From: Anaerolineae bacterium | GTDB lineage: Bacteria > Chloroflexota > Anaerolineae > 4572-78 > NAK82 | DNA length: 54,991 bases | Direction of reading: 5' to 3' | Assembly: GCA_049969215.1 (NCBI GenBank) | Contig: JBMFPH010000001.1 | Location: 1 to 54,991 of the forward strand | Part shown: positions 7,570 to 54,740 of the stretch, in pieces | Layout of the letters: each line of letters opens with the position of its first letter | Position numbering within the stretch: position 1 is the first letter of the stretch | Program-made: the position numbers and the translations under genes | Notes under the pieces: model-generated | Seen by the model: only the letters and a program-made list of their open reading frames with translations | Databases searched by the model: none | Told to the model about the DNA's origin: nothing

Positions 7570-7601
7570 CAGGTAGTGCGGACTAAAAAGAAACGATCAC
7601 C

Positions 7602-11223: not shown

Positions 11224-11238
11224 CGAAGGGGTGAACCG

Positions 11239-12252: not shown

Positions 12253-12355
12253 GAGTCGGTCGTGTCTTTCGACCCTGACACTATCCCACCTTGATTATGA
12301 GACGGCTATGGATAGCATGACAACATAGAACAATGTTTCTTATCAGGAGATTGCG

Positions 12356-31404: not shown

Positions 31405-32157
31405 ATGGACGCAGCGAATCTGTTTCATTCGGTGGCACCAGAGGGACGTCTGGTTGACCGTGTCGTCGACCAAATCCAGCGTCTGATCTTGGATGGACAT
31501 CTGCGCGTTGGCACACGACTGCCCTCGGAGATGGAACTAGCGGCACAGTTGGGAGTGAGTCGCACGGTCATCCGCGAAGCGGTGCGTATCCTGACAGCCA
31601 AAGGACTGCTGGAGACACGCCCCGGCGTGGGTAGCATTGTGCGTCAGATGACCCGTGATCAGGTGGTTGAACCACTGGGTCATCTGCTGCGTGCCCATAA
31701 TGTCACTCTGGACGACTTACACGAAGTGCGCGGCATATTGGAGGTGGAGATCGCCGGATTGGCTGCTCGACAAGCTGATGCTGAGGACATTGCCAAACTC
31801 AGGCAAGCTATGGAGGCGATGACCAGAGCGACGAACGATGCCGAAGCATTGGCCGCTCATGATGCCGAGTTCCATCGCGCCTTAGCCCAGGCTACCCATA
31901 ACCCTTTGCTGGTTATCCTGCTGGACTCTATACGCGACCTTATGCAAGAGGTGCGCCTGCGTGTCAGCAGCTACCCAGACATTGTAGAGGTTATCATACC
32001 TGATCACTATCGCGTTCTGGACTGCGTTGTGGCGGGTGATGAGGAGGGCGCACGTCGCGCAATGCGTGAACATATAGACCATGCACGTGAATTTCAACGT
32101 GCCGTGTTTATGCGCGAGGCCGATGATCCCGAAATGAGTGGTGATCTGGAGAGCTAG
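31405..32157 (+). CDS. GntR-family transcriptional regulator, FadR subfamily (FCD domain), copy 1
   Basis: Winged HTH ...SEMELAAQLGVSRTVIREAVRILTAKGLL... followed by an all-helical FCD-like C-terminal domain. Confidence 0.88.
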   Translation: MDAANLFHSVAPEGRLVDRVVDQIQRLILDGHLRVGTRLPSEMELAAQLGVSRTVIREAVRILTAKGLLETRPGVGSIVRQMTRDQVVEPLGHLLRAHNVTLDDLHEVRGILEVEIAGLAARQADAEDIAKLRQAMEAMTRATNDAEALAAHDAEFHRALAQATHNPLLVILLDSIRDLMQEVRLRVSSYPDIVEVIIPDHYRVLDCVVAGDEEGARRAMREHIDHAREFQRAVFMREADDPEMSGDLES

Positions 32158-40444: not shown

Positions 40445-40477
40445 GACGAGAGTCTTTTGGGAATGGGCCATTTAGGG

Positions 40478-40506
40478 TTGACACAGACGAGAAGGTGATG
40501 TATAGT
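40478..40506 (+). promoter_or_regulatory. promoter upstream of the TIM-barrel/ABC-transporter operon
   Basis: TTGACA (40478-40483), a 17-nt spacer, then TATAGT (40501-40506). Confidence 0.6.
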
Positions 40507-40511
40507 GCGAC

Positions 40512-40537
40512 TGGTCATATGGTATGCCAGCATACCT
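40512..40537 (+). promoter_or_regulatory. operator: TGGTCA box plus palindrome GGTATGC-CA-GCATACC (site 1 of 2)
   Basis: TGGTCA lies at 40512-40517. TGGTATGCCAGCATACCT (40520-40537) is identical to 49434-49451. The palindrome starts 14 nt after the -10 in both sites. Confidence 0.6.
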
Positions 40538-40566
40538 CAATTTTCCACGCATAGGAGAAGCTCGCA

Positions 40567-41382
40567 ATGAAGCCGGGCGTGGTCGTGAACGGACCCGACG
40601 TTGTCTATGGACCGTTGGCCCTCCTCAGTGGCACGTTTGAGGAGAAGGTAGCTAAAGCAGCTCGAATGGGCTACCGTGGCATCGAATTCATGGTGCGTGA
40701 TCCCTCAGGGCTGGATTGGGCATGGATAAAGACCACCATCCAGAATGCCGGGTTGGAAGTTCCTCAGGTCGTCACTGGCGAGCTCTTCGGCGCAGATGGT
40801 CTGTGCTTGGTAACCGCGGACGACGAGCTATATCGTCGAGCGGAAGAACGCACGCGCTCGGTGATCGATCTGGCCGCCTATCTGGGCGCTATGGTTAACA
40901 TCGGACGACTGCGCGGCCAGCTCAATCTGCTGGGTGACGTAGCAGATCCCTACAGCATTGCAGTAGAACGCCTCCGTAAAGTGGCACTCTATGCCGCGGA
41001 ACGCGGCGTTAAGATCACTTTGGAGCCACTCAATCGTTACGAGAGTGACTTCATCCCCAATGCACTCGAAGGCCGTCGCTTTATTGAGGCAATAGGCTGT
41101 GACAATGTTGGCCTGATGCTTGATCTGTTTCATATGAACATCGAAGATGCCTCGATTGAGGAAGGGCTGCGCCAAGCGGGGGAATTGTTGTGGCATCTTC
41201 ACATTGCCGACACAAACCGACGCTATCCAGGCAGCGGACATATGAACTACGACAGCATCTTCGCTACCCTGCGAGAGATGGACTACCAAGGGTATGTCTC
41301 AGCTGAAATGCTACCGCTGCCAGATCCGGACACGGCTGCACAAAAGACGATAGAGTTTTTGCGCCGTTACATCTCGATGTGA
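40567..41382 (+). CDS. xylose-isomerase-like TIM-barrel sugar (phosphate) isomerase/epimerase (paralog of 27077-27943)
   Basis: ...LMLDLFHMNIED..., HIADTNRRYPGSGHMNY, and ...LPLPDPDTAAQKTIEFLRRYI are shared with the paralog. The RBS is AGGAG. Confidence 0.85.
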   Translation: MKPGVVVNGPDVVYGPLALLSGTFEEKVAKAARMGYRGIEFMVRDPSGLDWAWIKTTIQNAGLEVPQVVTGELFGADGLCLVTADDELYRRAEERTRSVIDLAAYLGAMVNIGRLRGQLNLLGDVADPYSIAVERLRKVALYAAERGVKITLEPLNRYESDFIPNALEGRRFIEAIGCDNVGLMLDLFHMNIEDASIEEGLRQAGELLWHLHIADTNRRYPGSGHMNYDSIFATLREMDYQGYVSAEMLPLPDPDTAAQKTIEFLRRYISM

Positions 41383-41639
41383 AAGGGGGTGAGGCGAGCG
41401 GCATCACGGTATACTTTTGAGCAGGCATGCGGAACAACGAAGACCCAGACCGGTGACGAAACGATTGGTAAGGTCTCTGAGTTTGGCCAACTCGGAGACG
41501 CGGATTGCTCAGAGGTTGGGTTGAAATCGCTCAAAGTGATCTTTCAGGAGGTAAGACTGGCCAGACTGAAAAGTCAAACAATTGGCAAACAGTGCAGTTG
41601 CTTAACCTTTAGATACTCAATGATAAGAGGAGGATCCCA

Positions 41640-43124
41640 ATGAGTACTAGGATGTTCAGGGTTTTCAGCGCCTTATTAGCAGTCGCCATGTTGCTTGGTC
41701 TGGTGGTTCCGGTTGCGCACGCGCAAGGGCCTTGCCAGGGGAGCTCGTCCCAATGTGCTGTGGAAGCGGCTAAGCAGTTTGCCGGAACCACCATTAATTA
41801 TGTGCGTGAGGCCGGCTTGCAGGCACAGGATCCACTGACAATGGCTCCGATTTGGGAAGAGCTGACCGGCATCAAGGTTAACGTGATCGAGCTCGCCTAC
41901 TTGGACATGTACACCAAGCCTTTGCAGGATCACCTGACCGGTGGTGGAGCTTATGACGCGATTGACCTGTCCCCAATGTGGATGCAAGATTACGTCAATG
42001 CGGGCGCCTTAGAGCCATTGGATCCCTACATCGAGAAATACATGAACCCAGCCGATATGGAGGACTTCCTGCCGGTCTACCGCTCCGAAGGGGTCATGAA
42101 GATCAACGGCGTCACCTATGGCCTGTTTGACGATGGCGATGTGTTCATCCTCTACTATCGCAAGGATTTGTTTGAGGATGAGACCAACAAGGCCGAGTTT
42201 AAAGCAAAGTATGGCTATGAGTTGACGCCGCCTGAGACGGAGCAGCAGATGTACGACGCCGCTGAGTTTTTCACCAACAAGTATGCCCCCGAGCTGTACG
42301 GGCTGGCAATGCAGCGGATAGAGGGCCAGGCCTATTCCTGGTTTGTCGGCCCCTTTAGCGGCCGTGGTGGCCAATTCTTCGATGAGAACATGAAGGCAAC
42401 CATCAACAGTGAGATCGGCATCCAGCTGCTCACGGATATGGTGAAGCAAAACAAGGTTATGCCGCCTGGCGTCGAGAAGTGGGGCTTTATGGAGGTTCTG
42501 AGCGCCTGGATGGATGGCAAAGTGGCCATGATCGTTACATGGCCGCCGATCGGTCGCTGGTCCGCCGGCTACGGTGACACGGCTAAGCAGCTGGCTTGGG
42601 TGCCGGCCAGTAAGGTGATCGGTAAGGTGGGCTATATGCCGCAGCCGGGTGGTCGTCCTACATTGGCCGGTGGTTTCAATATGTGCGTTTCCGCAAGCAG
42701 CAACAATAAGGAAGCTGCCTATCTATTCATCCAGTGGATGACCAGTCCAGATATCAGTCTGCAGCGCGTGATGTTGCCCTTCGCTTTACGCGACCCCTAT
42801 CGTATGTCTCACTTCAACTCGCCGTTGTATCGTTCCGCTTGGCCTGAGGCAGGCGAATATCTGGACACACTCAAGAAGGCTGCTATGGCCGGGCAATATG
42901 AGCTGGGTATTCCGGGTGCGCGCGAGTATATGGAGGCTATCGACAACGCGCTCACGGCTGCTTACGCGGGCAAGGATCCGAAAGAAGCTTTGGATGAGGC
43001 AGCTGCTAAGTGGGATGCCATCACCGAACGGCTCGGCGTTGAGAATCAGAAGAAAGCCTATGAGCAGTGGCTGAAGAATCCTTGGAACCGTCTCGGTCCC
43101 AAAGTGGAAGTTCCCGCTGAATAG
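41640..43124 (+). CDS. ABC transporter extracellular solute-binding protein (family 1, carbohydrate type)
   Basis: Signal peptide ending VAHA/Q. The length and W/Y-rich profile are typical of CUT1 sugar-binding proteins. The RBS is AGAGGAGG. Confidence 0.85.
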   Translation: MSTRMFRVFSALLAVAMLLGLVVPVAHAQGPCQGSSSQCAVEAAKQFAGTTINYVREAGLQAQDPLTMAPIWEELTGIKVNVIELAYLDMYTKPLQDHLTGGGAYDAIDLSPMWMQDYVNAGALEPLDPYIEKYMNPADMEDFLPVYRSEGVMKINGVTYGLFDDGDVFILYYRKDLFEDETNKAEFKAKYGYELTPPETEQQMYDAAEFFTNKYAPELYGLAMQRIEGQAYSWFVGPFSGRGGQFFDENMKATINSEIGIQLLTDMVKQNKVMPPGVEKWGFMEVLSAWMDGKVAMIVTWPPIGRWSAGYGDTAKQLAWVPASKVIGKVGYMPQPGGRPTLAGGFNMCVSASSNNKEAAYLFIQWMTSPDISLQRVMLPFALRDPYRMSHFNSPLYRSAWPEAGEYLDTLKKAAMAGQYELGIPGAREYMEAIDNALTAAYAGKDPKEALDEAAAKWDAITERLGVENQKKAYEQWLKNPWNRLGPKVEVPAE

Positions 43125-43136
43125 GGGTGATCGTAT

Positions 43137-43168
43137 TGGGGCGCCCCATGAACGGACTGGGGCGCCCC
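43137..43168. repeat. two copies of TGGGGCGCCCC (each containing the 10-nt palindrome GGGGCGCCCC) between the binding-protein and permease genes
   Basis: Copies lie at 43137-43147 and 43158-43168, separated by 10 nt. Confidence 0.7.
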
Positions 43169-43208
43169 CTCTCATAGGTCAGATTTACTCAAAGGAGATT
43201 GGAGCACG

Positions 43209-44129
43209 ATGGTGACCACGACAGAGGCTTTATCGCTGAAATCAGAAATGCCTCGTCGTAAACGACGTGATCTCATCCCATGGATGTTCGTAGCACCGTG
43301 CATAATGGTCATCCTGCTGGTGACAGTATTCCCTACCGTCTATTCCCTTGGTCTTAGCTTGACCAAGTGGGAAATTGGCTTGCAGGAGCGGCCTTTTATC
43401 GGGCTAGGCAATTACATTGAGCTGTTCAGCACGGCCCGATTCTGGCGTTCCTTGCTCACCACGTTGCTAGTCGTGGTCGTTGGGGTAAGCATCGAGTTTC
43501 TTTTGGGCTTCGGCTTGGCCCAAACGTTATCGGGCCAGATGAAAGGCAAACGAATCATTGTCGCAGCGCTGCTCCTGCCAGTAATGGTGATGCCGGTGGT
43601 GGTCGGCTACACGTGGCGTCTGTTGTGGGATGCCCAATATGGGCCGATCAATCAAATCATCGGTTGGATCATTGGGCAGCCATTTACTTATACTTGGCTG
43701 GCCAAGACTGAAACAGCACTGTTGGCCATCCTGGTGACAGAGATCTGGCAGTGGACGCCTTTTATGTTTCTGGTCTTTCTGTCTGGCTTGGCCGTGTTGG
43801 ATCCAGAGATATTCGAAGCAGCAGACATTGATGGTGCTTCCGGATGGGCCAAGCTATGGTATATGACACTGCCGTTGATGCGTCCCATTATTGTGGTGGC
43901 ATTGCTCATCCGTGGTCTGGATGCCCTGAAGTTCTTCGACATTATCTTCACCCTAACAGGGGGTGGGCCGGGCAATTCCACCGAAACCCTTTCATTTTAC
44001 ATCTATCAGATGGGCTACCAATTCTTCCGATTGGGCTATGGGGCAGCGGCTGCATTTGTACTGCTTGTATTCTTGGCGGTATTCCTGACTTATTTGCTTA
44101 AAGCTTTCAAATCCGCCGTGGGAAGTTGA
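43209..44129 (+). CDS. ABC transporter permease (MalF-like, CUT1)
   Basis: Six hydrophobic segments and an EAA-type loop EAADIDGASGWAKLWYMTLPLMRP. Confidence 0.9.
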   Translation: MVTTTEALSLKSEMPRRKRRDLIPWMFVAPCIMVILLVTVFPTVYSLGLSLTKWEIGLQERPFIGLGNYIELFSTARFWRSLLTTLLVVVVGVSIEFLLGFGLAQTLSGQMKGKRIIVAALLLPVMVMPVVVGYTWRLLWDAQYGPINQIIGWIIGQPFTYTWLAKTETALLAILVTEIWQWTPFMFLVFLSGLAVLDPEIFEAADIDGASGWAKLWYMTLPLMRPIIVVALLIRGLDALKFFDIIFTLTGGGPGNSTETLSFYIYQMGYQFFRLGYGAAAAFVLLVFLAVFLTYLLKAFKSAVGS

Positions 44130-44208
44130 TGCATTGTGCAGTCGCTCTTGATCGGTGTCCAAGGTTTGAGAAGATGAAACCCTTAGTGCCTGTTTTAAGA
44201 GGAGAGCT

Positions 44209-45036
44209 ATGAGCTTACGCACGCGTAAGTTGTTTGTCAGTTCCTCGCGATATTTGGTTGCGGCAGTCGCTTTGATATTCTTCCTGTTCCCGATCGTTTG
44301 GATCATATTAACCGCTTTTAAGACGCCAAATGAGTTCTTGAAGAGTCCACCGGTTTGGATCCCTCAAACACCCAGTCTGGTATATTTTGAGCATGTGATT
44401 GGAACTGGCGGGCTCAAGGCACTGATCAACACCCTGATCATCTCCACCGCGACCACACTTTTGGCGCTGCTGATAGGTTCGTTAGCAGCCTATGCCCTGG
44501 CACGTTATCGAGTCGGGGGAGACAACCTTCCATTTTTCATCCTCTCACAGCGCTTCATGCCTCCAGTGGCCGTAATCTTTCCGTTTCTGCTGTTCTTCAA
44601 AACGCTCAGGTGGATGGATACCCACCAGGCATTGATTCTCATCTATCTGACCTTTAATCTGCCTTATGCGGTGTGGATGATGCGCGGTTTCTTTTTGGAA
44701 ATACCGCGTGAAATTGAGGAGTCAGCCTTGGTGGATGGTTGTTCACCATTGGGCGCCTTCTGGCGCATCGCGTTGCCATTGGTCTCCCCAGGGTTGGTTG
44801 CCACGGGGGTCTTTTGCTTCATCTTTTCTTGGGCCGAGTTCTTCTTCGCGGTTGCCATTACCAAGTCTCAAGCGGTTACGTTGTCGGTTTACATTGTGAA
44901 TTTCTTTGGCAAGATGATGGTGCAATGGGGTGAAATTGGCGCCACCTCTATTGTGTCTATGGTGCCTCTGTTTATCCTGAGCTTCATGGTGCAGCGTTAT
45001 TTGGTGCGCGGCCTGACGCTAGGCGCGGTCAAGTAG
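44209..45036 (+). CDS. ABC transporter permease (MalG-like, CUT1)
   Basis: EAA-type loop ESALVDGCSPLGAFWRIALPLVSP and six hydrophobic segments. Confidence 0.9.
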   Translation: MSLRTRKLFVSSSRYLVAAVALIFFLFPIVWIILTAFKTPNEFLKSPPVWIPQTPSLVYFEHVIGTGGLKALINTLIISTATTLLALLIGSLAAYALARYRVGGDNLPFFILSQRFMPPVAVIFPFLLFFKTLRWMDTHQALILIYLTFNLPYAVWMMRGFFLEIPREIEESALVDGCSPLGAFWRIALPLVSPGLVATGVFCFIFSWAEFFFAVAITKSQAVTLSVYIVNFFGKMMVQWGEIGATSIVSMVPLFILSFMVQRYLVRGLTLGAVK

Positions 45037-45055
45037 AGAAGGAGATGTCTAAACC

Positions 45056-45694
45056 ATGCCTCGCATTGTTGACCTGAGTCTGACCTTGCGCCCTGGTATG
45101 CAAGGGGTGGAGTATGAAGACCAATCCACTTTTGCCTCCAAGGGATGGTATACACGGTTACTTCATCTCCACTCTCACGCTGGTACGCATCTGGACGCAC
45201 CAGGCCACTTTCTCGAAGACGGCTTGACCCTGGAAAAGATAGCTTTGGAGAAGTGCATTGGCCCAGCGTGGGTGATCGACCTGAGCTTCCTTCAACCGCG
45301 CGAGATCATCACTGTGGAACACCTTGCCCCGTATTCTGAACGGGTGACCTGTGGGGCGCGTTTGTTGTTGAAAACTGGTTGGAGTACCCACACTGATATG
45401 TCAGACTACCGCACACACTTCCCGCGCGTGAGCTTGTCCCTGGCACAGTGGTTTGCGCAGCGTGGCATCGCCTTACTGGGTGTTGAGACACCCGCTGTCG
45501 CTTCGATGGATGATCGAGAAGAGCTTATCTCCGTGCACCAAGCTCTGCTGCGTGCTGAGATCGTTATCGTAGAAGGGCTGGCCAATCTGGATGCCCTCTC
45601 AACAGACCAAGTGACATTTATCGCTCTGCCGCTTAAACTGAAGGACGGTGACGGCTCGCCAGTGCGTGCAGTGGCAATTGAAGGGAGCTTATGA
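45056..45694 (+). CDS. putative-cyclase family metal hydrolase (kynurenine formamidase/isatin hydrolase-like)
   Basis: HAGTHLDAPGHF signature (HxGTHxDxPxH). 212 aa. Confidence 0.8.
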   Translation: MPRIVDLSLTLRPGMQGVEYEDQSTFASKGWYTRLLHLHSHAGTHLDAPGHFLEDGLTLEKIALEKCIGPAWVIDLSFLQPREIITVEHLAPYSERVTCGARLLLKTGWSTHTDMSDYRTHFPRVSLSLAQWFAQRGIALLGVETPAVASMDDREELISVHQALLRAEIVIVEGLANLDALSTDQVTFIALPLKLKDGDGSPVRAVAIEGSL

Positions 45695-45806
45695 GGCAGC
45701 GAAGGGGTATCTACATCATCAGTTTGGGCTATCTTTTTAGTCAAGGTGCTGGATTGTTTATGATACTTCGAAGACAAAGAAAACTTTGCTGTGGAGGTCT
45801 TAAGCG

Positions 45807-46682
45807 ATGATCTTCTGCACAGGACTTAGTGTACCCGAAGGACCGGTGCTCTTGCCGGATGGCAGCTTCTTGGTGGTCGAGATGGGGGCAGACCGTGGAT
45901 GTGTGACCCACATCAGTCCCGACGGTAAAGAAAAACGGACCATTGCCAGGACCGGACGCCCTAACGGACTGGCCTTAGATCGGCACGGCAATATCTGGGT
46001 GGCTGAGTCGGGAGACCTGCCCGCGTTATTGCGTGTCACGATGGATGGCCAGGTTGAGATATTCGTGACCGAGTGCGATGGTGAACCGTTCCTCTTTCCC
46101 AACGATCTCGCCATTGGCCCAGACGGTGAGATTTACATGACCGATTCGGGCATCTTGGCCAAAGACTTTGCGCCAGGTGGAAAAGTACGACCTGACTGGG
46201 CCACTTGCCCGATGGATGGACGGGTCTATAGGATTAACCCTAAGACTCGCCAGGTGGTTAAGATTGACTCGGGGATGAAATTCCCCAATGGGATCGCCTT
46301 TGGGCCAGATGGGAATCTCTATGTCAATGAGATGATCCCAGCAATCGTATGGCGCTACGAGTGGAAAGATGGCCGCATTATCAGCGGACGCCAGTATTTT
46401 GGCAATGTGGCTGACCCCGATAGTCCAGCTCCAATGAAATTCCCGGATGGACAGAAATTCGGCGCGAATGGACACCTGTATGTGACTGTCTTCGGCCAGG
46501 GAGATGTCACGGTTCTTGGACCGGACGGTCAGGTCACGCAACGGATCAAGACGGAGGGCAAAATGCCCACCAACTGTGTGTTTGGGCCTCCAGGCAGCCA
46601 CAAGCTCTATGTAACCGAAGACGAATTCGGCACCATTGAGGTATTTGACGTCGGGACAGACGGTCTGCCGCTCTACACGTAG
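45807..46682 (+). CDS. SMP-30/gluconolactonase/LRE-family beta-propeller (probable lactonase)
   Basis: Repeated blades: PNGLALDRHGNIWVAE, PNDLAIGPDGEIYMTD, PNGIAFGPDGNLYVNE and PDGQKFGANGHLYV. Confidence 0.85.
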   Translation: MIFCTGLSVPEGPVLLPDGSFLVVEMGADRGCVTHISPDGKEKRTIARTGRPNGLALDRHGNIWVAESGDLPALLRVTMDGQVEIFVTECDGEPFLFPNDLAIGPDGEIYMTDSGILAKDFAPGGKVRPDWATCPMDGRVYRINPKTRQVVKIDSGMKFPNGIAFGPDGNLYVNEMIPAIVWRYEWKDGRIISGRQYFGNVADPDSPAPMKFPDGQKFGANGHLYVTVFGQGDVTVLGPDGQVTQRIKTEGKMPTNCVFGPPGSHKLYVTEDEFGTIEVFDVGTDGLPLYT

Positions 46683-46745
46683 GGTGCTCACATAGAGGTG
46701 GCTCAGGTATCAACCAAGCCCGAAGCTCCCTAGGTAGGTCGAATT

Positions 46746-48119
46746 TTGCTGAAGGAGATGATCACATTGCATTCCCACAGTCCTGTCTTTACTCGCCTGC
46801 TTGACCGCATTATGCGGATGCCGGTCGTTGATTGCCATGAGCACCTGCGAGGTCCGGAGCGCGATCTAAAGGATAGGCCGCGCGAACCGATCGCCGCTTT
46901 GACAACTATGTACTTGATCAGCGATCTGTGGTCGGCTGGAGCGACCGACCGTGAGATTGGAATCTTAGAGAACCCTGCTGTTAGCACAGACGAAAAATGG
47001 CCTTTGTTCGCGCGTCTCTGGGAGGCCTGTCGCCACACAGCTTACGCACGTGTAACGTGCCTGATGCTGAAACACTGCTATGGTGTCGAAGAGATAACGA
47101 GGGCTGCTTTGGAGCACGTGGCGGAGCGCCTGGCCGAGCAGGATGAGGCATATTATCTAAGGCTTTTTGAGGAAGCCGGCATCAAAGCGGTCGTCGCCGA
47201 TGCGCTCTTTCCACCTCCGTGGGAACGTCCAGTTCGTTACTTCGGCAGCCCAGTGCTGCAACAGTTTCTGCAAGATAAGTTCCAATTGCCCCGCAGCTGG
47301 CGCCCTGTATTCTCGTTACCCTACTATCATGAGATTCGCTTGCGCGAATTCGTCGACTTTGTTGGCTCGTTGGCAGAGCAGAACGTCACCTCACTAGAGG
47401 AATACGAAGAGGCCCTATACACGCTCATCAGACGCGCTGTCCAGAAGGGTGTCATTGCTTTCAAGGACCAATCCGCTTACCGGCGTATCATTTCCTATGA
47501 TCTACCAACCCGAGACGAGGCAGAGCGCTTGTTTAACCGCTTGCTGACAGATCCGCGCCAGCAGCTGGCTTGGCCGGAGGCAAAGCCACTGGATGACTAT
47601 CTGTTTCACCAAATGATGCGCTGGGCGCGCGAATTGCACTTGCCGGTCCAGATTCATACTGGCCATCTGGCAAACTCGCGCAATCGGGTGGACAAGGCAA
47701 ACGCAAAGCACTTTACTTCGGTGTTGGAGCTCCACAGGGAAGTGCGCTTTGACCTCTTCCATGGTAACTGGCCTTATATGGCGGATGTGTTGTTTCTGGC
47801 CAAGAACTATCCCAATGCGCATTTGGACATGTGTTGGGTGCATATGGTAGACCCTCTATACAGTCGAGAGTTGCTTAAACGGGCCGTCATGACTGTGCCA
47901 CACACGAAGATTTTCGGTTTCGGTGGCGATTATTTTTTGTCGCCCGAGCATTCCATTGCGCATCTGATGCTCGCGCGGGAAGTCATAGCAGCCGCGCTGG
48001 CGGACTTGATAGAGATCGGATGGCTGGAGGAAGAGAAGGCAATCCAGATCGCAGCGGGATGGCTCTACAACAACCCCAATCGCTTCTATCAGTTGGGACT
48101 GCCCGACTTTGTGCCATGA
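46746..48119 (+). CDS. amidohydrolase-fold protein (amidohydrolase_2/uronate-isomerase-like), substrate unknown
   Basis: N-terminal metal motif VVDCHEHL, later IHTGH and a conserved Asp region. The start codon is uncertain (46746, 46758 or later). Confidence 0.65.
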   Translation: MLKEMITLHSHSPVFTRLLDRIMRMPVVDCHEHLRGPERDLKDRPREPIAALTTMYLISDLWSAGATDREIGILENPAVSTDEKWPLFARLWEACRHTAYARVTCLMLKHCYGVEEITRAALEHVAERLAEQDEAYYLRLFEEAGIKAVVADALFPPPWERPVRYFGSPVLQQFLQDKFQLPRSWRPVFSLPYYHEIRLREFVDFVGSLAEQNVTSLEEYEEALYTLIRRAVQKGVIAFKDQSAYRRIISYDLPTRDEAERLFNRLLTDPRQQLAWPEAKPLDDYLFHQMMRWARELHLPVQIHTGHLANSRNRVDKANAKHFTSVLELHREVRFDLFHGNWPYMADVLFLAKNYPNAHLDMCWVHMVDPLYSRELLKRAVMTVPHTKIFGFGGDYFLSPEHSIAHLMLAREVIAAALADLIEIGWLEEEKAIQIAAGWLYNNPNRFYQLGLPDFVP

Positions 48120-48143
48120 GTTGGGAGATGCACTGAAACCTTG

Positions 48144-49298
48144 ATGAATACACCCCACCACGCGGAGAACGTGATCAGCGTTCAGGAGTATCAAGCTCGC
48201 CTTGAGATGATACGTCAGGCAATGGCGCATAGGGGCCTGGACGCCCTCCTGGTATACTCTTGGAAGCGCGGCCAGGTACGTTACCTCTCGGGTTACAAAC
48301 CCAACTATGTGGCCAATGTCGCAATGGTTGTGGTCCTCCCCGACCGTGATCCCACCTTGCTCATACGTTTTCCCTTTGATCTAGGGCGGGCGCGCAAAGT
48401 GTCCTGGCTGCAGGATGTCCGTGCCAGTGGCGATCTGGAAGGTCTGGTGAGCGACTGCCAAGCCATCCTTGACAGCGCAATTGTACGTGGCAGCTTCATC
48501 GGGTTGGTGGGTGGCGATTCGGTGGTGGATGAGCTGCCGCACAGTATGTATGAAATGCTGAGTCGGGCACTGCCTGACTATAGATTGGTGCCTGCATCCT
48601 ACATCCTCGAGAAAGCCCGCATGTGCAAAAGCGTCGCCGAAGCTGAATTAGTGCGTGAATCGGCGCGCGTAGCTGATGCCACACTAGCGACTGCCCGCAG
48701 TGTAGCACAGGCAGGCCGTTCGGAGTATGAGCTTATTGCGGCAGCGGAGGCAACTGCGCGTGCCCTGGGCGCGGAGGAAATCCTCTCTGTTATCGCTTCA
48801 GCGGCGTGGGAACTGATCAGACCACCCGAAGGACGCCTGCTGGGAGAGAATGAAATGCTCGTGGCAGAATTCGCTGTCCAGGTGGGAGGATACTTTACTC
48901 AGGTGCCGGGTGTTTTTCACACTGGTACGCCGAGCGCGGAACAGCGAGAGATGTATTCGGTAGCCTATGCTGGTTATCTGGCCGGCGTGCAGGCCGCTTG
49001 CCCAGGTCATACTGTCGGCGATGTTGCCAGAGCGGAGCTGGCCATTCTTGAGGACAGTGGCTGGCTCGAATGGCATGCCTATGACCTGGGGCACGGCGAC
49101 GGATTAGATCACCCTGAGATCCCTGCCATTACACCCGAATCGAATGTGCCGATTGAGCCTGGAATGGTGCTTTGCATTCATCCTGGGCTGCGTAAACCGG
49201 GTGTCGGAGGTGTCTTTGTGGGTGGTACAGTTCTGATCGGAGAAGACGGGGCCATCCCGTTGCATCAGGTTGCTCCTGAGATGTGGGACTGGAAGTAA
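48144..49298 (+). CDS. M24-family pita-bread-fold protein with creatinase/prolidase-type N-terminal domain
   Basis: GHGDGLDHPE, IEPGM and IGEDG motifs in M24 order. The usual D...D metal pair appears by eye to read E...Q (AEFAVQVGGYFTQV). Confidence 0.75.
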   Translation: MNTPHHAENVISVQEYQARLEMIRQAMAHRGLDALLVYSWKRGQVRYLSGYKPNYVANVAMVVVLPDRDPTLLIRFPFDLGRARKVSWLQDVRASGDLEGLVSDCQAILDSAIVRGSFIGLVGGDSVVDELPHSMYEMLSRALPDYRLVPASYILEKARMCKSVAEAELVRESARVADATLATARSVAQAGRSEYELIAAAEATARALGAEEILSVIASAAWELIRPPEGRLLGENEMLVAEFAVQVGGYFTQVPGVFHTGTPSAEQREMYSVAYAGYLAGVQAACPGHTVGDVARAELAILEDSGWLEWHAYDLGHGDGLDHPEIPAITPESNVPIEPGMVLCIHPGLRKPGVGGVFVGGTVLIGEDGAIPLHQVAPEMWDWK

Positions 49299-49390
49299 CA
49301 AGAGTCAAGGCGGAGCATAGAAGAGCGCGCCTGTCCATCGTGTTAGTGCGCTTTGAGATTGCGCCTTGAGTCTTAGCTTGTACCTACGGG

Positions 49391-49420
49391 TTGACCCAGC
49401 TCCGGACAAAGCGTTAGAGT
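49391..49420 (+). promoter_or_regulatory. promoter upstream of the 2-hydroxyacid dehydrogenase/DUF1537 operon
   Basis: TTGACC (49391-49396), an 18-nt spacer, then TAGAGT (49415-49420). Confidence 0.5.
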
Positions 49421-49425
49421 TTGCA

Positions 49426-49451
49426 TGGTCAGGTGGTATGCCAGCATACCT
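49426..49451 (+). promoter_or_regulatory. operator: TGGTCA box plus palindrome GGTATGC-CA-GCATACC (site 2 of 2)
   Basis: TGGTCA lies at 49426-49431. TGGTATGCCAGCATACCT (49434-49451) is identical to 40520-40537, with the same spacing from the -10. Confidence 0.6.
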
Positions 49452-49493
49452 ATTCGTCGGGCAACAAGGCCAGATTGCAGTTGGCAGGCGCCT

Positions 49494-50570
49494 ATGAAAG
49501 ACATTCTATTTCGTATTGGGGTTTCCGCTGATTTCAACAACGAAGCTCCTGGTCTGCTTGAACCTTTCCTGGAGCAAGTATTCGGGCCGTTTCCCTTTGT
49601 GGAACGTTGTTTCTTCCCGGTCAAGAGCAAAGTGGTAGCAGCAGCTGACATCATGGATTTCGATGCGGTGATAACATTGAAAGCACGATACACCGCTGCA
49701 TCGCTGAGCGGGAATAACCGCCTTGCGATCATCGCGCGTTGGGGGGCCGGTTATGACGTGGTCGATGTGCCAGCGTGCACTGCGGCTGATGTCTTGCTTG
49801 CCATCACACCTGAGGCGGTGCGCCAGCCAGTCGCCGAGGGCATCTTGGCTTTCTTCCTGGCACTCGCCAAGAATCTGTCGGCCAGAGATCGGATCACGCG
49901 CAGTGGGCTGCGCGACCTGACAATAGAAAACACTGGTGTCTGTTTGTCGGAAAAAGTTTTCGGCTCGGTAGGGTTGGGCAACATCGCGTCTCGGATGTTC
50001 CGCCTGATCCAGGCGTTTGGCCCGGCGCGCATGCTTGCCTGCGATCCCTACGTAAAACCTGCGCACGCGGAGCAGCTGGGCGTGGAGCTGGTCGATCTGC
50101 GTACCCTGTTCCGCGAGTCTGATTTCCTGGCTGTCACCTGTCCCCTCAATGATGAAACAAGAGGTATGATCGATCGCAAATTGCTGTCCTTGATGAAGCC
50201 GACCGCCTTCTTTGTGAATGTAGCGCGTGGTGGCATTGTCAAAGAAGAGGATCTGGTGGCCGTCCTGCGAGAGGGGCGCATTGCTGGTGCCGGGTTGGAC
50301 GTCTTTGAGCAAGAACCTTTGCCCCCTAATCACCCTCTTGCCTCTTTGCAAAACGTCATGCTGACCCCACATCGTATCGCATGGTCGGATGCACTCTATC
50401 GCGGAAACGGCCTGGGGGCCTGTCATAATGTCCTGACGGTGTTGCAGGGCAGAGTGCCCGAGCACACGGTCAATCGTGAGGTTATCCATCAACCTGGCTT
50501 TCAGGCTAAACTACAGTTGCTTGGCCAGCGTTGGGCATCTGCCGTGGAAAGAACGGTTAACATGCGGTAA
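49494..50570 (+). CDS. D-isomer-specific 2-hydroxyacid dehydrogenase family protein
   Basis: VGLGNIASRM Rossmann motif, NVARGGIV, GAGLDVFEQEP, and TPHRIAWSD (catalytic His). ATG 49494 is preferred because the longer ORF (49425) would run through the operator. Confidence 0.82.
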   Translation: MKDILFRIGVSADFNNEAPGLLEPFLEQVFGPFPFVERCFFPVKSKVVAAADIMDFDAVITLKARYTAASLSGNNRLAIIARWGAGYDVVDVPACTAADVLLAITPEAVRQPVAEGILAFFLALAKNLSARDRITRSGLRDLTIENTGVCLSEKVFGSVGLGNIASRMFRLIQAFGPARMLACDPYVKPAHAEQLGVELVDLRTLFRESDFLAVTCPLNDETRGMIDRKLLSLMKPTAFFVNVARGGIVKEEDLVAVLREGRIAGAGLDVFEQEPLPPNHPLASLQNVMLTPHRIAWSDALYRGNGLGACHNVLTVLQGRVPEHTVNREVIHQPGFQAKLQLLGQRWASAVERTVNMR

Positions 50571-50579
50571 GGAGGGATT

Positions 50580-51419
50580 ATGGGTGAGGTGGTGGCTCTG
50601 CTGGGTGCTGCCGGCAAAATGGGCACCCGCATCAGCAGCAATCTTGCAAAGACGACAGCGTATGAAGTGCTATGTGTCGAGGCGACCGGAGCAGGTGAAG
50701 AGCGCTTGCGCGCGCGTGGTTTTGCTCCAATCCCACTCTGGGATGCCGTGCCACACGCTGACATTGTGGTGATGGCGATACCAGATGTTCTGATAAGCAG
50801 CATGACCCGCACGATTGTCCCTCAGATGAGAAGTGGAGCCATGCTCCTATGCCTTGACCCTGCTGCACCTTACAGCGGCGAGATCCTTTTGCGCGACGAT
50901 ATTGCATATTTCGTCACCCATCCTTGTCATCCTTCTATCATTAAAGAAGAGACCGATCCAGTGGCACGCCAGGACTTTTTTGGCGGTGTCGCGGCCCAAC
51001 AGGCAATTGTCTGCGCATTGATGCAGGGATCAGAAGCTGACTATGTGCGCGGGGAGAAGCTGGCGCGTGCCATGTTTGCGCCGGTGCGACGGGCTCATCG
51101 TGTCACTGTGGAACAGATGGCACTGCTCGAACCCGCGATGGCCGAGACAATGGCTCTCACCCTGATGATGGCGTTGCGAGAAGGTCTTGACGAAGTGGTC
51201 AAACGTGGTGTACCGGAAGATGCCGCGCGAGACTTTTTGCTTGGCCATTTGGGTATCTTCGCCGGCATCCTGTTCGGTTTCTACGACGCACAGGTGTCCG
51301 ACGGCGCCAAAAGAGCTGCTGCGCGTGCCAGACAGGTTATCTTGCAGCCCGACTGGAAAAAGATTTTTGACCCAGACAATGTGATGCGTGAGGTCAAAGC
51401 AATCACACAAGGTCAGTGA
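50580..51419 (+). CDS. NAD(P)-binding Rossmann protein with helical C-terminal domain (ProC/6-phosphogluconate-dehydrogenase-C-like), function unknown
   Basis: N-terminal LLGAAGKMG dinucleotide motif and MAIPDV. It has a paralog at 54741. The RBS is AAGGAGG. Confidence 0.6.
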   Translation: MGEVVALLGAAGKMGTRISSNLAKTTAYEVLCVEATGAGEERLRARGFAPIPLWDAVPHADIVVMAIPDVLISSMTRTIVPQMRSGAMLLCLDPAAPYSGEILLRDDIAYFVTHPCHPSIIKEETDPVARQDFFGGVAAQQAIVCALMQGSEADYVRGEKLARAMFAPVRRAHRVTVEQMALLEPAMAETMALTLMMALREGLDEVVKRGVPEDAARDFLLGHLGIFAGILFGFYDAQVSDGAKRAAARARQVILQPDWKKIFDPDNVMREVKAITQGQ

Positions 51420-51435
51420 GGGGGTGCGTTCATTC

Positions 51436-52221
51436 GTGAAACCTAATCGCTTTAGGCAAATCATAGCTCAGGGCAAGGTTCCAGTAGGACATATGTTGAT
51501 CGAGTTTGCATCCCCTGGGATGGCTCGAATCCTTGATTGTGTCGGTGTCGACTTTGTGGTCGTGGATATGGAACATTCAGGTTTCGGTTTCCGAGAGGTG
51601 GCTACCCTGCTGGCGTTGTTCAAGGGCACTTCTATTACCACCTTTGTGCGCGCGCCTCAGATCGAGTATCACTTCATCGCGCGTTGCCTGGATGCTGGAG
51701 CCCAAGGCATCATGGCGCCCAATGTCAGAAATGGTGTCGAGGCACGGGCTATCATCAACGCGGCCAAGTATGCCCCCTTGGGTGAGCGCGGTGTGGCACT
51801 TGGCACGGCTAACACGGACTACCGGTCTGTCAACGCCGTTGAGTTCCTCACGGAAGCCAACCAAGAGACGGTTGTCATATGCCAAATCGAGAGCCAGGAA
51901 GGCCTTGACCATCTCGAAGAGATTGCCGCCACCCCTGGAGTGGACATTCTTTGGGTAGGGCACTTTGATCTGAGTCACTCCTTGGGAATTGCTGGGCAGC
52001 TGGATCATCCAAGATTGCTCGAGGCACTACGGCAGGTAGTGGCCGTGGCTAGGCGCCATAAACTGGCTGCCGCTATTCAGCCACGTACATTAGTACAGGC
52101 ACGAAGGTGGTTGGAACTGGGTTTCAATGTGATTTCATTCGGTGCCGATGTGGCCATTTACACCGACGCTTTGGCCGATGGGGTCGCCCGGGTGCGTGAG
52201 CTGGTGGAGCAGAGAGATTAA
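51436..52221 (+). CDS. HpcH/HpaI-family class II (metal-dependent) 2-keto-3-deoxy-acid aldolase
   Basis: N-terminal ...NRFRQIIAQGKVPVGHM..., VVVDMEHSGFG, and the QIES...GV motif. GTG 51436 is chosen to match the family N-terminus, but the start is uncertain. Confidence 0.8.
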   Translation: MKPNRFRQIIAQGKVPVGHMLIEFASPGMARILDCVGVDFVVVDMEHSGFGFREVATLLALFKGTSITTFVRAPQIEYHFIARCLDAGAQGIMAPNVRNGVEARAIINAAKYAPLGERGVALGTANTDYRSVNAVEFLTEANQETVVICQIESQEGLDHLEEIAATPGVDILWVGHFDLSHSLGIAGQLDHPRLLEALRQVVAVARRHKLAAAIQPRTLVQARRWLELGFNVISFGADVAIYTDALADGVARVRELVEQRD

Positions 52222-52245
52222 GAGGCAGCTGCGAGTGGAGCATCT

Positions 52246-53652
52246 ATGAACCTAAAGGAGATGTTTGAAAGCTTGCCTCCAGAGTGGCCAGCCGACCTGT
52301 TGGCTGACATTCGCGAATTAGTCCACGAGAGTCGGCGCAAGATAGTGGTGCTGGATGACGATCCCACTGGCACCCAGACAGTGCATGATGTCCCGGTGCT
52401 CACAGGGTGGTCAGTAGAGGCACTATGTGCTGAGCTCGAGAGTGATTTGCCGGCTTTCTATATTCTTACCAACTCACGCAGTCTGTCCCTCGCGGAGGCG
52501 GTGGCTTTGAATACCACAGTCGGACGTAACTTATTGGAAGCAAGGTATCGCTCAGGACGTGAGTTCGTGGTGGTAAGTCGGAGCGACTCTACTTTGCGCG
52601 GACATTTTCCGGGAGAGGTCAAGGCATTGGCGCAAGCGTTGCAGCAGCAATTCGACGCTTGGTTGATCATCCCCTTCTTTCTGGAGGGAGGGCGTTATAC
52701 CGTTCACGATGTCCATTACGTTGCCGAGGGGGAGCAACTCGTGCCAGCAGGTGAAACCGAGTTTGCCCGTGACGTGGTTTTTGGGTACCACGCCTCCAAC
52801 CTGCGCGAATGGGTAGAGGAAAAGACGAGAGGTGACGTCCGCGCGAGCGATGTAGCTTCTATCAGTATAGATGATTTGCGCCTCGGGGGGCCTGATAGGG
52901 TCACTGAGCAGCTGACAGCCCTCCGGAATGGCAACATCTGCATTGTGAACGCTGCCAGTATGCGCGACTTGCAAGTGTTCGTCCTCGGTCTGTTGCGCGC
53001 TGAAGCTCTGGGAAAGCGATTTTTGTATCGCACAGCAGCTTCTTTTGTTCAAGTGCGCGCCGGATTGGCACCGCATCCCCTGCTTCAACGTTCAGATTTC
53101 GATCTGTCCTTTGGAAGTGGCGGGTTGATCGTGGTCGGTTCCTATGTACCACGCACCACCGCTCAGATTCGAACCCTTATTAGCAGGTCTGATATCTGCA
53201 GCCTGGAGGTTGCGGTTGAGGCGTTGCTCGATGATGAGCATTGGCAGCAAGAGACAAAGCGTCTGGCACGACAGGCAGATCAGCTGTTGCGTTCCGGCTG
53301 CAATGTCATGTTGTACACCAGCCGCCAGCTGGTCACCGGTGCGAACGCTGAACACAGCCTGAACATCGGAAGGCGAGTGTCAGAGGGATTGGTATCCATT
53401 GTACGTGCCATTTCCGCGCGACCGCGCTACCTAGTGGCGAAAGGCGGTATAACTTCAAGTGATGTGGCCACATACGGTCTAGATGTTAAGCGTGCAATGG
53501 TGATGGGCCAGATTTTGCCGGGCGTACCGGTGTGGCGGCTTGGCCCAGAAAGTCGTTTCCCTGGCTTGGCGTACGTCGTCTTTCCGGGCAACGTGGGTGA
53601 CGCTCAATCTCTGCTCCGGGTAGTTCAAATGCTTAGCTATGACGAAGAGTAA
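52246..53652 (+). CDS. DUF1537 four-carbon (acid-sugar) kinase family protein
   Basis: Hallmark N-terminal IVVLDDDPTGTQTVHDVPVLT. Two-domain length (468 aa). C-terminal ...KGGITSSD... nucleotide-binding region. Confidence 0.85.
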   Translation: MNLKEMFESLPPEWPADLLADIRELVHESRRKIVVLDDDPTGTQTVHDVPVLTGWSVEALCAELESDLPAFYILTNSRSLSLAEAVALNTTVGRNLLEARYRSGREFVVVSRSDSTLRGHFPGEVKALAQALQQQFDAWLIIPFFLEGGRYTVHDVHYVAEGEQLVPAGETEFARDVVFGYHASNLREWVEEKTRGDVRASDVASISIDDLRLGGPDRVTEQLTALRNGNICIVNAASMRDLQVFVLGLLRAEALGKRFLYRTAASFVQVRAGLAPHPLLQRSDFDLSFGSGGLIVVGSYVPRTTAQIRTLISRSDICSLEVAVEALLDDEHWQQETKRLARQADQLLRSGCNVMLYTSRQLVTGANAEHSLNIGRRVSEGLVSIVRAISARPRYLVAKGGITSSDVATYGLDVKRAMVMGQILPGVPVWRLGPESRFPGLAYVVFPGNVGDAQSLLRVVQMLSYDEE

Positions 53653-53660
53653 AGGGTCGG

Positions 53661-53695
53661 AAGTGAAGCTCATCACCATCTATGAGATTTCACTT
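53661..53695 (+). terminator. imperfect hairpin after the DUF1537 gene
   Basis: AAGTGAA (53661-53667) pairs with TTCACTT (53689-53695). The inner stem is CTCAT (53669-53673) with ATGAG (53682-53686). The T-rich context is weak. Confidence 0.35.
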
Positions 53696-53774
53696 TCAGG
53701 CTGTTGAGTGCGGACAATGGCAAAACCCAGAACCTATCCCCAAACTGAAATGCACACGGCTCATAAGCGCCATT

Positions 53775-53803
53775 TGACATTGTTGCTCAGAAAGTCTAAG
53801 ATT
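53775..53803 (+). promoter_or_regulatory. promoter for the second GntR regulator
   Basis: TTGACA (53775-53780), a 17-nt spacer, then TAAGAT (53798-53803). A TGGTCG box (53808-53813) follows at nearly the same offset as the TGGTCA boxes of the two operator sites. Confidence 0.5.
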
Positions 53804-53857
53804 TTGTGGTCGCATCATCATACCACGTACCAAGGTCATGCTAAGGGAGATTGACTA

Positions 53858-54697
53858 ATGATAGAGCGGGAAGTATCGAACCCGATCCAATTATTCAAGG
53901 CGATTCAACGCTCAGCCACTCTGGTTCACCGCGTCACCGGGCAGATCGAGCAACTGATCATCAAAGGGGAGCTGCACCCCGGTGACCGCTTGCCCCCGGA
54001 GCGCGAGTTGGCACGCCAGTTCGGCGTAAGTCGGACTGTGGTGCGCGAAGCAGTGCGTTCTCTGGTTGCCAAGGGGCTGCTGGAAGTACGACCTGGCAGT
54101 GGCACTTTGGTGCGCAGCCCCAGTGCAGATGCGGTCGCACAGTCACTGATAATGTTCTTGCGAGCTGGACGTCCCGAATTCGACTGTGAGAAAGTGATGG
54201 AGATTCGCCGTGTCCTCGAGGTAGCGAACGCCGGCTTTGCAGCACAGCGTCGCACCTCTGAAGATTTGGCAGAGATGGCACATATTCTACGCGATGCAAG
54301 CACGCTCTCCTATGATCGCTATCGTTTTGCCGAGCTGGATGTCGCTTTCCATGCTGCTGTAGCACGCGCCACCCACAACGAGCTTTTGTCTTTGTTGTTG
54401 GACTCTGTGGCGGACATCCTTCTGACCTGGCGCCAGTTTAGTTTTGACGTGCCAGGTACACCCGAACGTGCCGTTATGTACCATCGTGCTATTTATGAGC
54501 AGATCAGACGCGGGGATATTGAGAGCGCTCGCCATGCAATGGGGGAACATCTAATTGAAGCCGAGGACACAATGCGCAAGGCGATTGCATTGCATACAGC
54601 CCATGCTAGGCAGCAAAGTGGTTATGAATCGTTGTGCAATGAGAGTGCAATAGGGGACAACGGGGGGACAGTCGCCGACGAGGCGACAATCTCTTAG
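53858..54697 (+). CDS. GntR-family transcriptional regulator, FadR subfamily (FCD domain), copy 2
   Basis: ...PERELARQFGVSRTVVREAVRSLVAKGLL... HTH and an FCD-like helical domain. It is a paralog of 31405-32157. Confidence 0.88.
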   Translation: MIEREVSNPIQLFKAIQRSATLVHRVTGQIEQLIIKGELHPGDRLPPERELARQFGVSRTVVREAVRSLVAKGLLEVRPGSGTLVRSPSADAVAQSLIMFLRAGRPEFDCEKVMEIRRVLEVANAGFAAQRRTSEDLAEMAHILRDASTLSYDRYRFAELDVAFHAAVARATHNELLSLLLDSVADILLTWRQFSFDVPGTPERAVMYHRAIYEQIRRGDIESARHAMGEHLIEAEDTMRKAIALHTAHARQQSGYESLCNESAIGDNGGTVADEATIS

Positions 54698-54740
54698 AGA
54701 ACATAGCTGATACAGAAAGGGGTAATTCAGAGCATTTCCC

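Follow-up and report, generated by a model that had tools for sequence, protein, structure and literature searches.

A putative composite operator of a FadR-subfamily regulator at two operon promoters of an Anaerolineae bacterium

In a 54,991-nucleotide (nt) stretch of the genome of an Anaerolineae bacterium (contig JBMFPH010000001.1; hereafter, the window), the palindromic 18-mer TGGTATGCCAGCATACCT is present exactly twice, at positions 40520-37 and 49434-51. The two copies lie just downstream of the predicted promoters of a transporter/hydrolase operon (40567-49298, operon 1) and of a dehydrogenase/aldolase/DUF1537-kinase operon (49494-53652, operon 2). Comparison with related genomes indicated that the 18-mer is best read as the core of an operator of approximately 24 bp, GGTCAnnTGGTATRCCAGCATACC. 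We consider it likely, and have good confidence, that this operator is recognized by the regulator encoded at 53858-54697 (GntR2), which combines a GntR winged helix-turn-helix (wHTH) with an FCD domain and would repress both operons and, more weakly, its own gene. All comparative evidence gathered here agrees with the original prediction that a FadR/GntR operator would unite the two operons in one regulon, and none of it contradicts this reading.

Results

Two copies of the palindrome at equivalent promoter positions

All coordinates underlying the prediction were re-read from the sequence and proved to be correct, including those of the exact recurrence of the 18-mer. The inverted repeat GGTATGC-CA-GCATACC is perfect, with 7-bp arms. 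In both copies, the 18-mer starts 14 nt past a -10 hexamer, which is itself separated from a TTGAC(A/C) -35 element by a spacer of 17 nt (site 1) or 18 nt (site 2), and a TGGTCA box (40512-17 and 49426-31, respectively) is located 2 nt upstream of the 18-mer. A consensus scan of positions 39000-54991 placed three promoters (40478, 53774, and 49391) ahead of all other + strand candidates. The operon 1 promoter, with a score of 11/12, was the best of the region, and the promoter of the regulator gene scored 10/12.

When the window was scanned for the 18-mer at up to three mismatches, only these two sites matched, and none of 100 dinucleotide shuffles contained two or more matches. Two exact repeats of at least 18 nt occur in the window, the other being an in-frame domain duplication (29626/29785), and 4 of 30 order-2 Markov simulations contained some 18-mer repeat. 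Repetition alone is therefore weak evidence; it is symmetry, promoter position, and conservation that carry the argument and, in combination, exceed chance. The two sites might instead lack a regulatory role and match by chance or because a promoter cassette was recently duplicated. Such an origin would agree with the occurrence of an exact 18-mer repeat in approximately one in eight simulated windows and with the sequence GGTTGAC-CAG that both sites share around the -35 element. However, the two copies have unrelated sequences both between -35 and -10 and past the site, so that similarity is confined to functional elements. In addition, both sites are conserved in sister genomes and the motif recurs in distant lineages. 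Duplication or chance is thus extremely unlikely, having already been largely refuted by the conservation pattern.

Whole-genome scans, which had been proposed as a check on the prediction, covered the 3.4-Mb assembly (368 contigs, 57.8% G+C). They yielded two copies of the 18-mer at 0-2 mismatches and one unrelated match at 3 mismatches, and thereby gave no sign of a dispersed repeat. A REP or MITE-like element was rejected on the basis of this copy number and of relaxed matches that occurred at chance level inside open reading frames (ORFs). No convincing non-coding site for further members of the regulon was found in the genome by exact, mismatch-tolerant, or relaxed-pattern scans; all relaxed matches were located in ORFs of more than 300 codons. 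Because the relaxed scans stayed at chance level, the regulon appears to be local, comprising the two operons and the regulator gene.

Conservation within the genus

The locus is common to five sister genomes, whose proteins are approximately 80-98% identical to those encoded here; with this genome (G000), they form the six genus genomes compared. In an alignment of the intergenic region between the TKC and TIM-barrel genes from all six, conservation was restricted to TTGAC and TATAGTG of the operon 1 promoter, with a variable spacer, and to a 26-nt block, yGGTCATAyGGTATrCCArCATACCT. Since these blocks are conserved while free variation is seen in the leader and in the spacer between -35 and -10, site 1 constitutes a phylogenetic footprint. 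Its TGGTCA box is present in all six genomes. The relatives carry TGGTATACCAGCATACC at site 1 and TGGTATGCCAGCATACC at site 2. The core of site 1 is TGGTATACCA in four of the five relatives and CGGTATACCA in G001. Only in this genome are the two copies exactly identical, a local accident that results from one A-to-G change. At site 2, TGGTATGCCAGCATAC is kept in G000, G001, and G002, in which TTGAC and the -10 of the operon 2 promoter can also be aligned.

Part of the gene set is missing from two sister genomes, G003 and G004, and the second promoter-operator has been lost together with it; remnants of operon 2 are located directly behind operon 1. This fusion under a single site-1 promoter indirectly supports the existence of one functional unit, and lends the same indirect support to the earlier suggestion that both operons serve one pathway. 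The gene order is M24, PGDH_C, DUF1537 in G003 (locus L033, 1850-2870) and SGL, DUF1537 in G004 (L034, 6370-6510).

A different state was observed in G002 (L032, G002:C113, ~11150-12950; also L021). Its amidohydrolase, M24, 2-hydroxyacid dehydrogenase, PGDH_C, and HpcH genes are present as fragments only, of 33-142 amino acids each and packed into 1.8 kb. Site 2 is intact and its -10 is degraded (TGGAGT). These fragments reflect either gene decay through serial deletions or a collapsed assembly of this metagenome-assembled genome (MAG).

A probable third site, in degenerate form, is located in the promoter of the regulator gene (Table 1). It keeps the far-left GGTC and the right-hand ATACCAC-GTACC but no longer the inner TGGT. 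Five of the six genus genomes retain this block, which occupies the place that is taken by a canonical site in orthologs of the regulator gene from G006, G010, and G023. On balance, and by a narrow judgment, we take it to be a weak autoregulatory site in the GntR2 promoter.

A palindrome in a leader region may also function as RNA. In that case, it would form a stem-loop in the 5'-untranslated region (5'-UTR; GGUAUG-CCAG-CAUACC, +9 to +24) that stabilizes mRNA, attenuates transcription, modulates translation, or, at site 1, terminates transcription of the upstream transketolase genes. The consensus scan did list site 1 as terminator-like, and the inverted repeat is kept at most orthologous sites, at some of them via G-U-compatible changes. 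However, the predicted hairpin is weak, with -5.5 kcal/mol here and -2.8 kcal/mol for the site 1 variant of all five relatives, in which an A at arm position 6 is not matched by a compensating change. None of the three leaders folded better than shuffled sequences (z-scores included -0.7 and -0.35), and the minimum-energy fold of site 2 does not use the hairpin. A T-run is absent from site 2 and from the relatives, and no Rfam match at E<=1 was found in region 40300-54991. An intrinsic terminator or structured 5'-UTR element was rejected on stem energy, z-scores, the missing T-run at site 2, and the lack of an Rfam match. A role as RNA, which would also leave unexplained the conserved left box, the fixed distance from the -10, and the strict association with one DNA-binding protein, is very unlikely.

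Co-occurrence of the motif with GntR2 orthologs

Wherever a genus genome contains both, the GntR2 and DUF1537 genes are adjacent, as they also are in two other genera (G006 and G012). Outside the genus, the motif was found beside GntR2 orthologs at 12 of 15 loci (48-65% identical proteins, from other Chloroflexota and from Armatimonadota), at a chance expectation of approximately 0.04 matches per 10 kb for the search pattern. At the majority of these loci, it comes immediately after the -10 of the ortholog's gene. Written as -10 hexamer, distance, and site, the ortholog's own promoter reads TATTAT-7-GGTCATATGGTATGCCACATACC in G006 (59% identical), TATAGT-7-GGTCATATGGTATGCCACATACC in G010 (65% identical), and TATACT-6-GGTCTTTGTGGTATACCGTATACC in G023 (58% identical, from another family). 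Corresponding arrangements are TACGCT-6-GGTCAGGTGGTATGCCACATGCC at locus L080 of a Caldilineaceae MAG and TATAAT-7-GGTATGTGGTATGCCACATGCC at the G334 ortholog. Further orthologs with an adjacent motif occur in Litorilinea, other Anaerolineae, Aggregatilineales, Chthonomonadaceae, and Abditibacteriaceae. In total, the site is located 5-7 nt past the -10 in at least nine promoters from seven lineages. G006, which represents another genus, additionally carries this promoter-operator module, as TATATT-6-GGTCCTATGGTATGCCACCATACC, ahead of the orthologous ABC transporter genes.

In a pattern-free k-mer count over the 15 upstream regions, TGGTATGC/GGTATGCC (7 of 15) and TGGTATG (9 of 15) were the most shared words, and none of 200 shuffles reached these counts. 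A paralog control of 20 loci, with GntR1-type and other regulators, gave a single match, 1.2 kb from the gene, and an outgroup control of 64 Mesorhizobium loci (38% identity, 778 kb) gave no motif matches. The orthologous group was encountered in 10 of 56 genomes of the order and in 3 of 400 genomes sampled in the phylum. This rarity makes the sample of sites hard to enlarge. Matches to the 17-mer in 40 relatives (at most two mismatches) were, outside the genus and with the exception of G006, rejected as chance or coding matches, being located inside long ORFs with no related gene nearby. A recurrent sequence of another family, GATATGCCAGCATATC, was rejected as it lies within a 971-codon ORF.

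It was also considered that the site may be that of another, unlinked transcription factor, or that GntR2 may act on it as an activator. Some FadR-family proteins activate certain promoters, as E. coli FadR does at fabA. However, across phyla the motif follows the orthologous group of the 53858 protein, which argues against an unrelated factor. A position at +1 to +24, directly downstream of near-consensus -35 and -10 elements, is moreover the classic repressor position, whereas activator sites are usually found upstream of the -35. Either possibility is decidedly unlikely.

The two FCD/GntR regulators of the window

GntR2 has an N-terminal GntR wHTH domain (PF00392, 83.5 bits at a cut-off of 27, residues 24-85) and a C-terminal FCD domain, the all-helical module for effector binding and dimerization (PF07729, 88.3 bits at a cut-off of 24.3, residues 113-232). 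The nearest NCBIfam models are LldR, NanR, and PdhR, and the nearest solved structures are those of PdhR and NanR. In 20 aligned sequences, D-x3-H (DVAFH), the His of YH(R/G)A, and the His of EHL were invariant; we take these Asp/His3 residues to be the metal and effector site of the FCD domain. In the DNA-binding domain, ERELARQFGVSRTVVRE of GntR2 aligns gap-free to FadR E34-E50, and GntR2 and all its orthologs share ERELARQFGVSRTV[VI]RE, a residue-for-residue match to the same segment. All GntR2 orthologs have Arg at HTH positions 28 and 38. These two residues make the Arg-G contacts in the FadR-DNA complex, and Arg at position 28 correlates with the G of the TKGT box (PMC4494728). GntR2 thus carries the residues expected for base contacts of the FadR type, namely Arg at HTH positions 28 and 38 and Gly at position 59.

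The original prediction named the regulators at 31405 and 53858 as the two candidates. Co-occurrence of orthologs and motif singles out the latter. The former, GntR1 (31405-32157), is disfavored by the paralog control and by Met at HTH position 28 in place of the usual Arg (EMELA instead of ERELA). GntR1 travels with E2 and SDR genes. The comparison makes it very probable that the FCD/GntR protein encoded at 53858-54697, and not its paralog at 31405, is the cognate regulator.

Binding of the site by GntR1, alone or in addition to GntR2, has several points in its favor. GntR1 belongs to the same subfamily, its gene lies 9 kb upstream within the same co-directional gene array, and no separate palindromic site for it was found in 13 nearby intergenic regions. 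However, loci of GntR1 orthologs and other paralogs lacked the motif apart from the one distant match, GntR1 of G005 is accompanied by E2 and SDR genes and not by the DUF1537 cluster, and its Met occupies the position at which Arg reads the G of TKGT (PMC4494728). Exclusive or additional binding by GntR1 is quite unlikely.

Several further observations weigh against assignment of the operator to GntR2. The recognition helix of GntR1 is nearly identical to that of GntR2 (VSRTVIREA and VSRTVVREA, respectively), and with such similar wHTH domains (VSRTV[VI]REA) cross-binding by GntR1 is possible. The left TGGTCA box at site 2 is present in G000 only and is not conserved in G001 and G002, and site 3, the weakest of the three, is degenerate and missing in G001. 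Two loci with orthologs of 48-49% identity (L151 and L152) and G012 have no motif within approximately 250 nt upstream. The search pattern used for the co-occurrence analysis was derived from the sites themselves, which is partly offset by the pattern-free k-mer test. Finally, all genomes compared are MAGs and fragmented.

Anatomy of the proposed operator and relation to known operators

Across lineages, GGTATRCC is nearly invariant and the right arm is more variable (ATACC, ATGCC, ATTCC, or GTACC). The distance between core and right arm varies by 1 nt (GGTATG-CCA-CATACC versus GGTATG-CCAG-CATACC). The primary dimer site is therefore probably TGGTATRCCA, flanked by weaker half-site boxes, GGTCA and CATACC, approximately 10 nt from the center, and the 7-2-7 palindrome of the original prediction can be read as an overlap of the core and the right box. 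Alternatively, GGTATG/CATACC may be bound by a dimer, with a flexible spacer of 3-4 nt. Site 1 read on its bottom strand at 40514-28 (GGCATACCATATGAC) is a 2-mismatch copy of the 15-nt motif class.

The consensus sequence of FadR-subfamily sites, NyGTM-N0-1-KACNy with TKGT/ACMA boxes, and additional half-site boxes 7-12 nt from the center, to one side of it or to both, in 13 groups of this subfamily have been described (Suvorova, Korostelev and Gelfand 2015, PMC4494728). The core TGGTATACCA of the relatives matches this consensus perfectly, and TGGTATGCCA, the core in this genome, is one arm base off. Further features shared with FadR-subfamily operators (PMC4494728) are the TGGT-AT-RCCA core, the half-site boxes, Arg at positions 28 and 38, a proposed local control of sugar-acid catabolic operons, and, in GntR2 orthologs, a site in the regulator's own promoter. 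In contrast to them, the right box is unusually strong, and in this genome generates a perfect 7-2-7 palindrome that is offset by 4 bp from the core.

The UxuR site of E. coli, AAATTGGTATACCAATTT (PMC8092373), contains the exact site 1 core of the sister genomes, TGGTATACCA. UxuR/ExuR, FCD regulators of the hexuronate regulon with a zinc-mediated effector site, also resemble the present system in having a sugar-acid regulon and an FCD domain with Asp/His3. However, GntR2 scored 87 bits with the Uxu model, whose cut-off is 442, which indicates similarity at family level only. Moreover, the UxuR site has symmetric AT-rich flanks without GGTCA or CATACC boxes, and its target genes are different.

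PdhR and LldR gave the best sequence matches to GntR2 (LldR model, 131 bits; PdhR model, 117 bits; PdhR structure 9jpj, E = 2e-24). These FCD repressors of 2-oxo and 2-hydroxy acid metabolism in E. coli and Corynebacterium act via TGGT...ACCA palindromes that overlap promoters (PMC4494728). The scores of GntR2 are, however, far below the equivalog cut-offs (311 and 330), the target genes are different, and the spacing between GT and AC, typically 3 nt in their sites, is 2 nt here.

NanR of E. coli is likewise an FCD regulator; GntR2 scored 129 bits with the NanR model, far below the subfamily cut-off of 260, and PDB entries 6on4 and 6wfq were among its matches. In the NanR operator, (GGTATA)3, each repeat binds one dimer, cooperatively (PMC8012715). 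The present operator similarly contains hexamers, GGTCAT, GGTATG/GGTATA, and GGTATG on the opposite strand, spaced by 7-8 bp. Whereas the NanR repeats are all direct, the arrangement here is symmetric, with two direct and two inverted hexamers. Direct pairs are represented by GGTCAT-N2-GGTATG at site 1 and GGTATG-N1-GGTATG in G334, and the inverted orientation of the other hexamers makes the site symmetric as a whole. In NanR, an N-terminal extension of 32 residues allows several dimers to bind cooperatively. GntR2 has approximately 23 residues ahead of its Pfam HTH, with a conserved LF..h.R stretch, and its residue 22 aligns to NanR residue 32.

Discussion

The proposed model predicts binding, sign of regulation, stoichiometry, and effector from the sequence, position, conservation, and co-occurrence of the sites. 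At both operon promoters, the operator starts 6 nt past the -10, and thus would cover the transcription start and the first ~24 nt. With a predicted start approximately 7 nt past the -10, it would span about +1 to +24 at all three promoters. Bound GntR2 would block open-complex formation or promoter escape and thereby repress the operons at 40567-49298 and 49494-53652 and, to a lesser extent, its own promoter through the degenerate site at 53808-53831. TGGTATRCCA would serve as the dimer site usual in the FadR subfamily, and additional subunits or a second dimer would probably be recruited through the GGTCA and CATACC boxes. GntR2 would be expected to leave the DNA when a carboxylate intermediate of the pathway, the anticipated inducer, binds to the metal site of the FCD domain. 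In kind, the proposed system is a standard local repressor of the FadR subfamily that acts through a composite operator, an expected sort of result for regulation biology. In the literature, no description was found of this regulator, the motif, or the orthologous group, which spans thermophilic Anaerolineae, Caldilineales-type Chloroflexota, and Armatimonadota.

The regulator and motif also occur as a pair in Armatimonadota MAGs (L078, L084, and L085; Chthonomonadaceae and Abditibacteriaceae; 48-58% identity), which suggests horizontal spread of the cassette between phyla. At two loci with distant orthologs, L081 (6866-12651) and L079 (1312-5728), GntR2-linked operons encode a Zn-dependent alcohol dehydrogenase (Zn-ADH), a GHMP kinase, a cyclase-family protein, a ribulose-phosphate 3-epimerase, an SIS isomerase, a 2-hydroxyacid dehydrogenase, and an SDR protein. 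The GHMP kinase, epimerase, and SIS isomerase are found there instead of DUF1537 and HpcH, and the cyclase-family hydrolase and D-2-hydroxyacid dehydrogenase are common to these operons and the window. Homologs of the Zn-ADH and the SDR protein of these two loci are encoded in the upstream island of the window (34170 and 30605).

A more speculative scheme, which we regard as possible but doubtful, is that the operator forms a symmetric four-hexamer array (GGTCAT - GGTATR / YATACC - CATACC) that would bind at least two dimers cooperatively, in the manner of NanR with mirror symmetry. The regulator and operator would have spread as a cassette by horizontal transfer between Chloroflexota and Armatimonadota and, in each host, would switch on an undescribed sugar-acid route that shares a cyclase-family hydrolase and a D-2-hydroxyacid dehydrogenase and uses either DUF1537 or GHMP as its kinase.

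On the basis of sequence, the site allows 13 genes with poor annotation to be grouped into a single unit that would be controlled jointly by one sensor protein. These genes include those for an ABC importer, four hydrolase-fold enzymes, a TIM-barrel epimerase, two dehydrogenases, an aldolase, and the DUF1537 kinase. Their grouping narrows the substrate search for a non-canonical DUF1537 pathway. An intermediate of this pathway should act on the regulator as effector, and purified FCD protein could serve as a ligand probe. In addition, a clean promoter-operator-repressor module becomes available from thermophilic uncultured Chloroflexota, a group for which almost no transcription control has been described. 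A hot-spring origin is suggested by the isolate names (Nak82, SKYB15) of several of the nearest Anaerolineae/'Ardenticatenia' MAGs.

Gene content and minor observations

Features of the locus are listed in Table 1. From 23.9 kb onward, all genes of the window are on the + strand, and a gap of 205 nt separates operon 2 from the GntR2 gene.

Table 1. Positions of operators, promoters, and genes in the window.
Feature	Position	Strand	Details
Putative operator 1, extended	40513..40537	+	left box GGTCA 40513-17; core TGGTATGCCA 40520-29; right box CATACC 40531-36
Putative operator 2, extended	49427..49451	+	left box GGTCA 49427-31; core TGGTATGCCA 49434-43; right box CATACC 49445-50
Putative operator 3, degenerate	53808..53831	+	GGTCGCATCATCATACCACGTACC; 5 nt past TAAGAT; kept in five of six genus genomes
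Predicted operon 1 promoter	40478..40506	+	-35 TTGACA 40478-83; 17-nt spacer; -10 TATAGT 40501-06
Predicted operon 2 promoter	49391..49420	+	-35 TTGACC 49391-96; 18-nt spacer; -10 TAGAGT 49415-20
Predicted regulator gene promoter	53774..53802	+	-35 TTGACA 53774-79; 17 nt; -10 TAAGAT 53797-802; kept in genus
Operon 1	40567..49298	+	eight genes; Pfam/NCBIfam; synteny kept in genus
IolO-like TIM-barrel epimerase or isomerase	40567	+	operon 1
ABC solute-binding protein	41640	+	operon 1
Two permeases	43209, 44209	+	operon 1
Cyclase-family hydrolase	45056	+	operon 1
SMP-30 lactonase-like protein	45807	+	operon 1
Amidohydrolase/UxaC-like protein	46746	+	operon 1
M24 creatinase-like protein	48141	+	operon 1
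Operon 2	49494..53652	+	four genes; Pfam/NCBIfam
D-2-hydroxyacid dehydrogenase	49494	+	operon 2
PGDH_C-type NAD-binding protein	50580	+	operon 2
HpcH/HpaI aldolase	51388	+	operon 2
DUF1537 acid-sugar kinase	52246	+	operon 2
GntR2, FadR-subfamily regulator (GntR wHTH + FCD)	53858..54697	+	Pfam; proposed cognate repressor
GntR1, second FCD/GntR regulator	31405..32157	+	Pfam; in upstream island rich in thiamine-enzyme genes

Conservation among orthologs of the D-2-hydroxyacid dehydrogenase starts at ATGAAAGA, which identifies the ATG at 49494, and not the codon at 49425, as the true start of the gene. The mechanically assigned ORF start at 49425 would place operator 2 within the coding sequence.

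The gap between the TIM-barrel and binding-protein genes is ORF-free over 257 nt (41383-41639). The equivalent gap in G006 (L069, G006:C295, 9640-10340) is approximately 700 nt long and includes the promoter-operator module, so that the binding-protein gene is preceded by a leader of approximately 550 nt. Directly behind the solute-binding-protein gene of the window, at 43137-43172, two copies of a G+C-rich palindrome, TGGGGCGCCCC(A/C), are located approximately 23 nt apart. This pair may represent an intra-operon stem-loop that raises the level of binding-protein mRNA relative to that of the permeases.

A second PGDH_C-type gene (54751-54991), approximately 58% identical to the copy at 50580, starts approximately 50 nt past the regulator gene, with which it is probably co-transcribed. 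It occupies the same position in G001, G002, G004, and G012. Elsewhere in the window, a perfect 16-nt inverted repeat at 7525-7570, just past a gene that ends at 7495, resembles a terminator.

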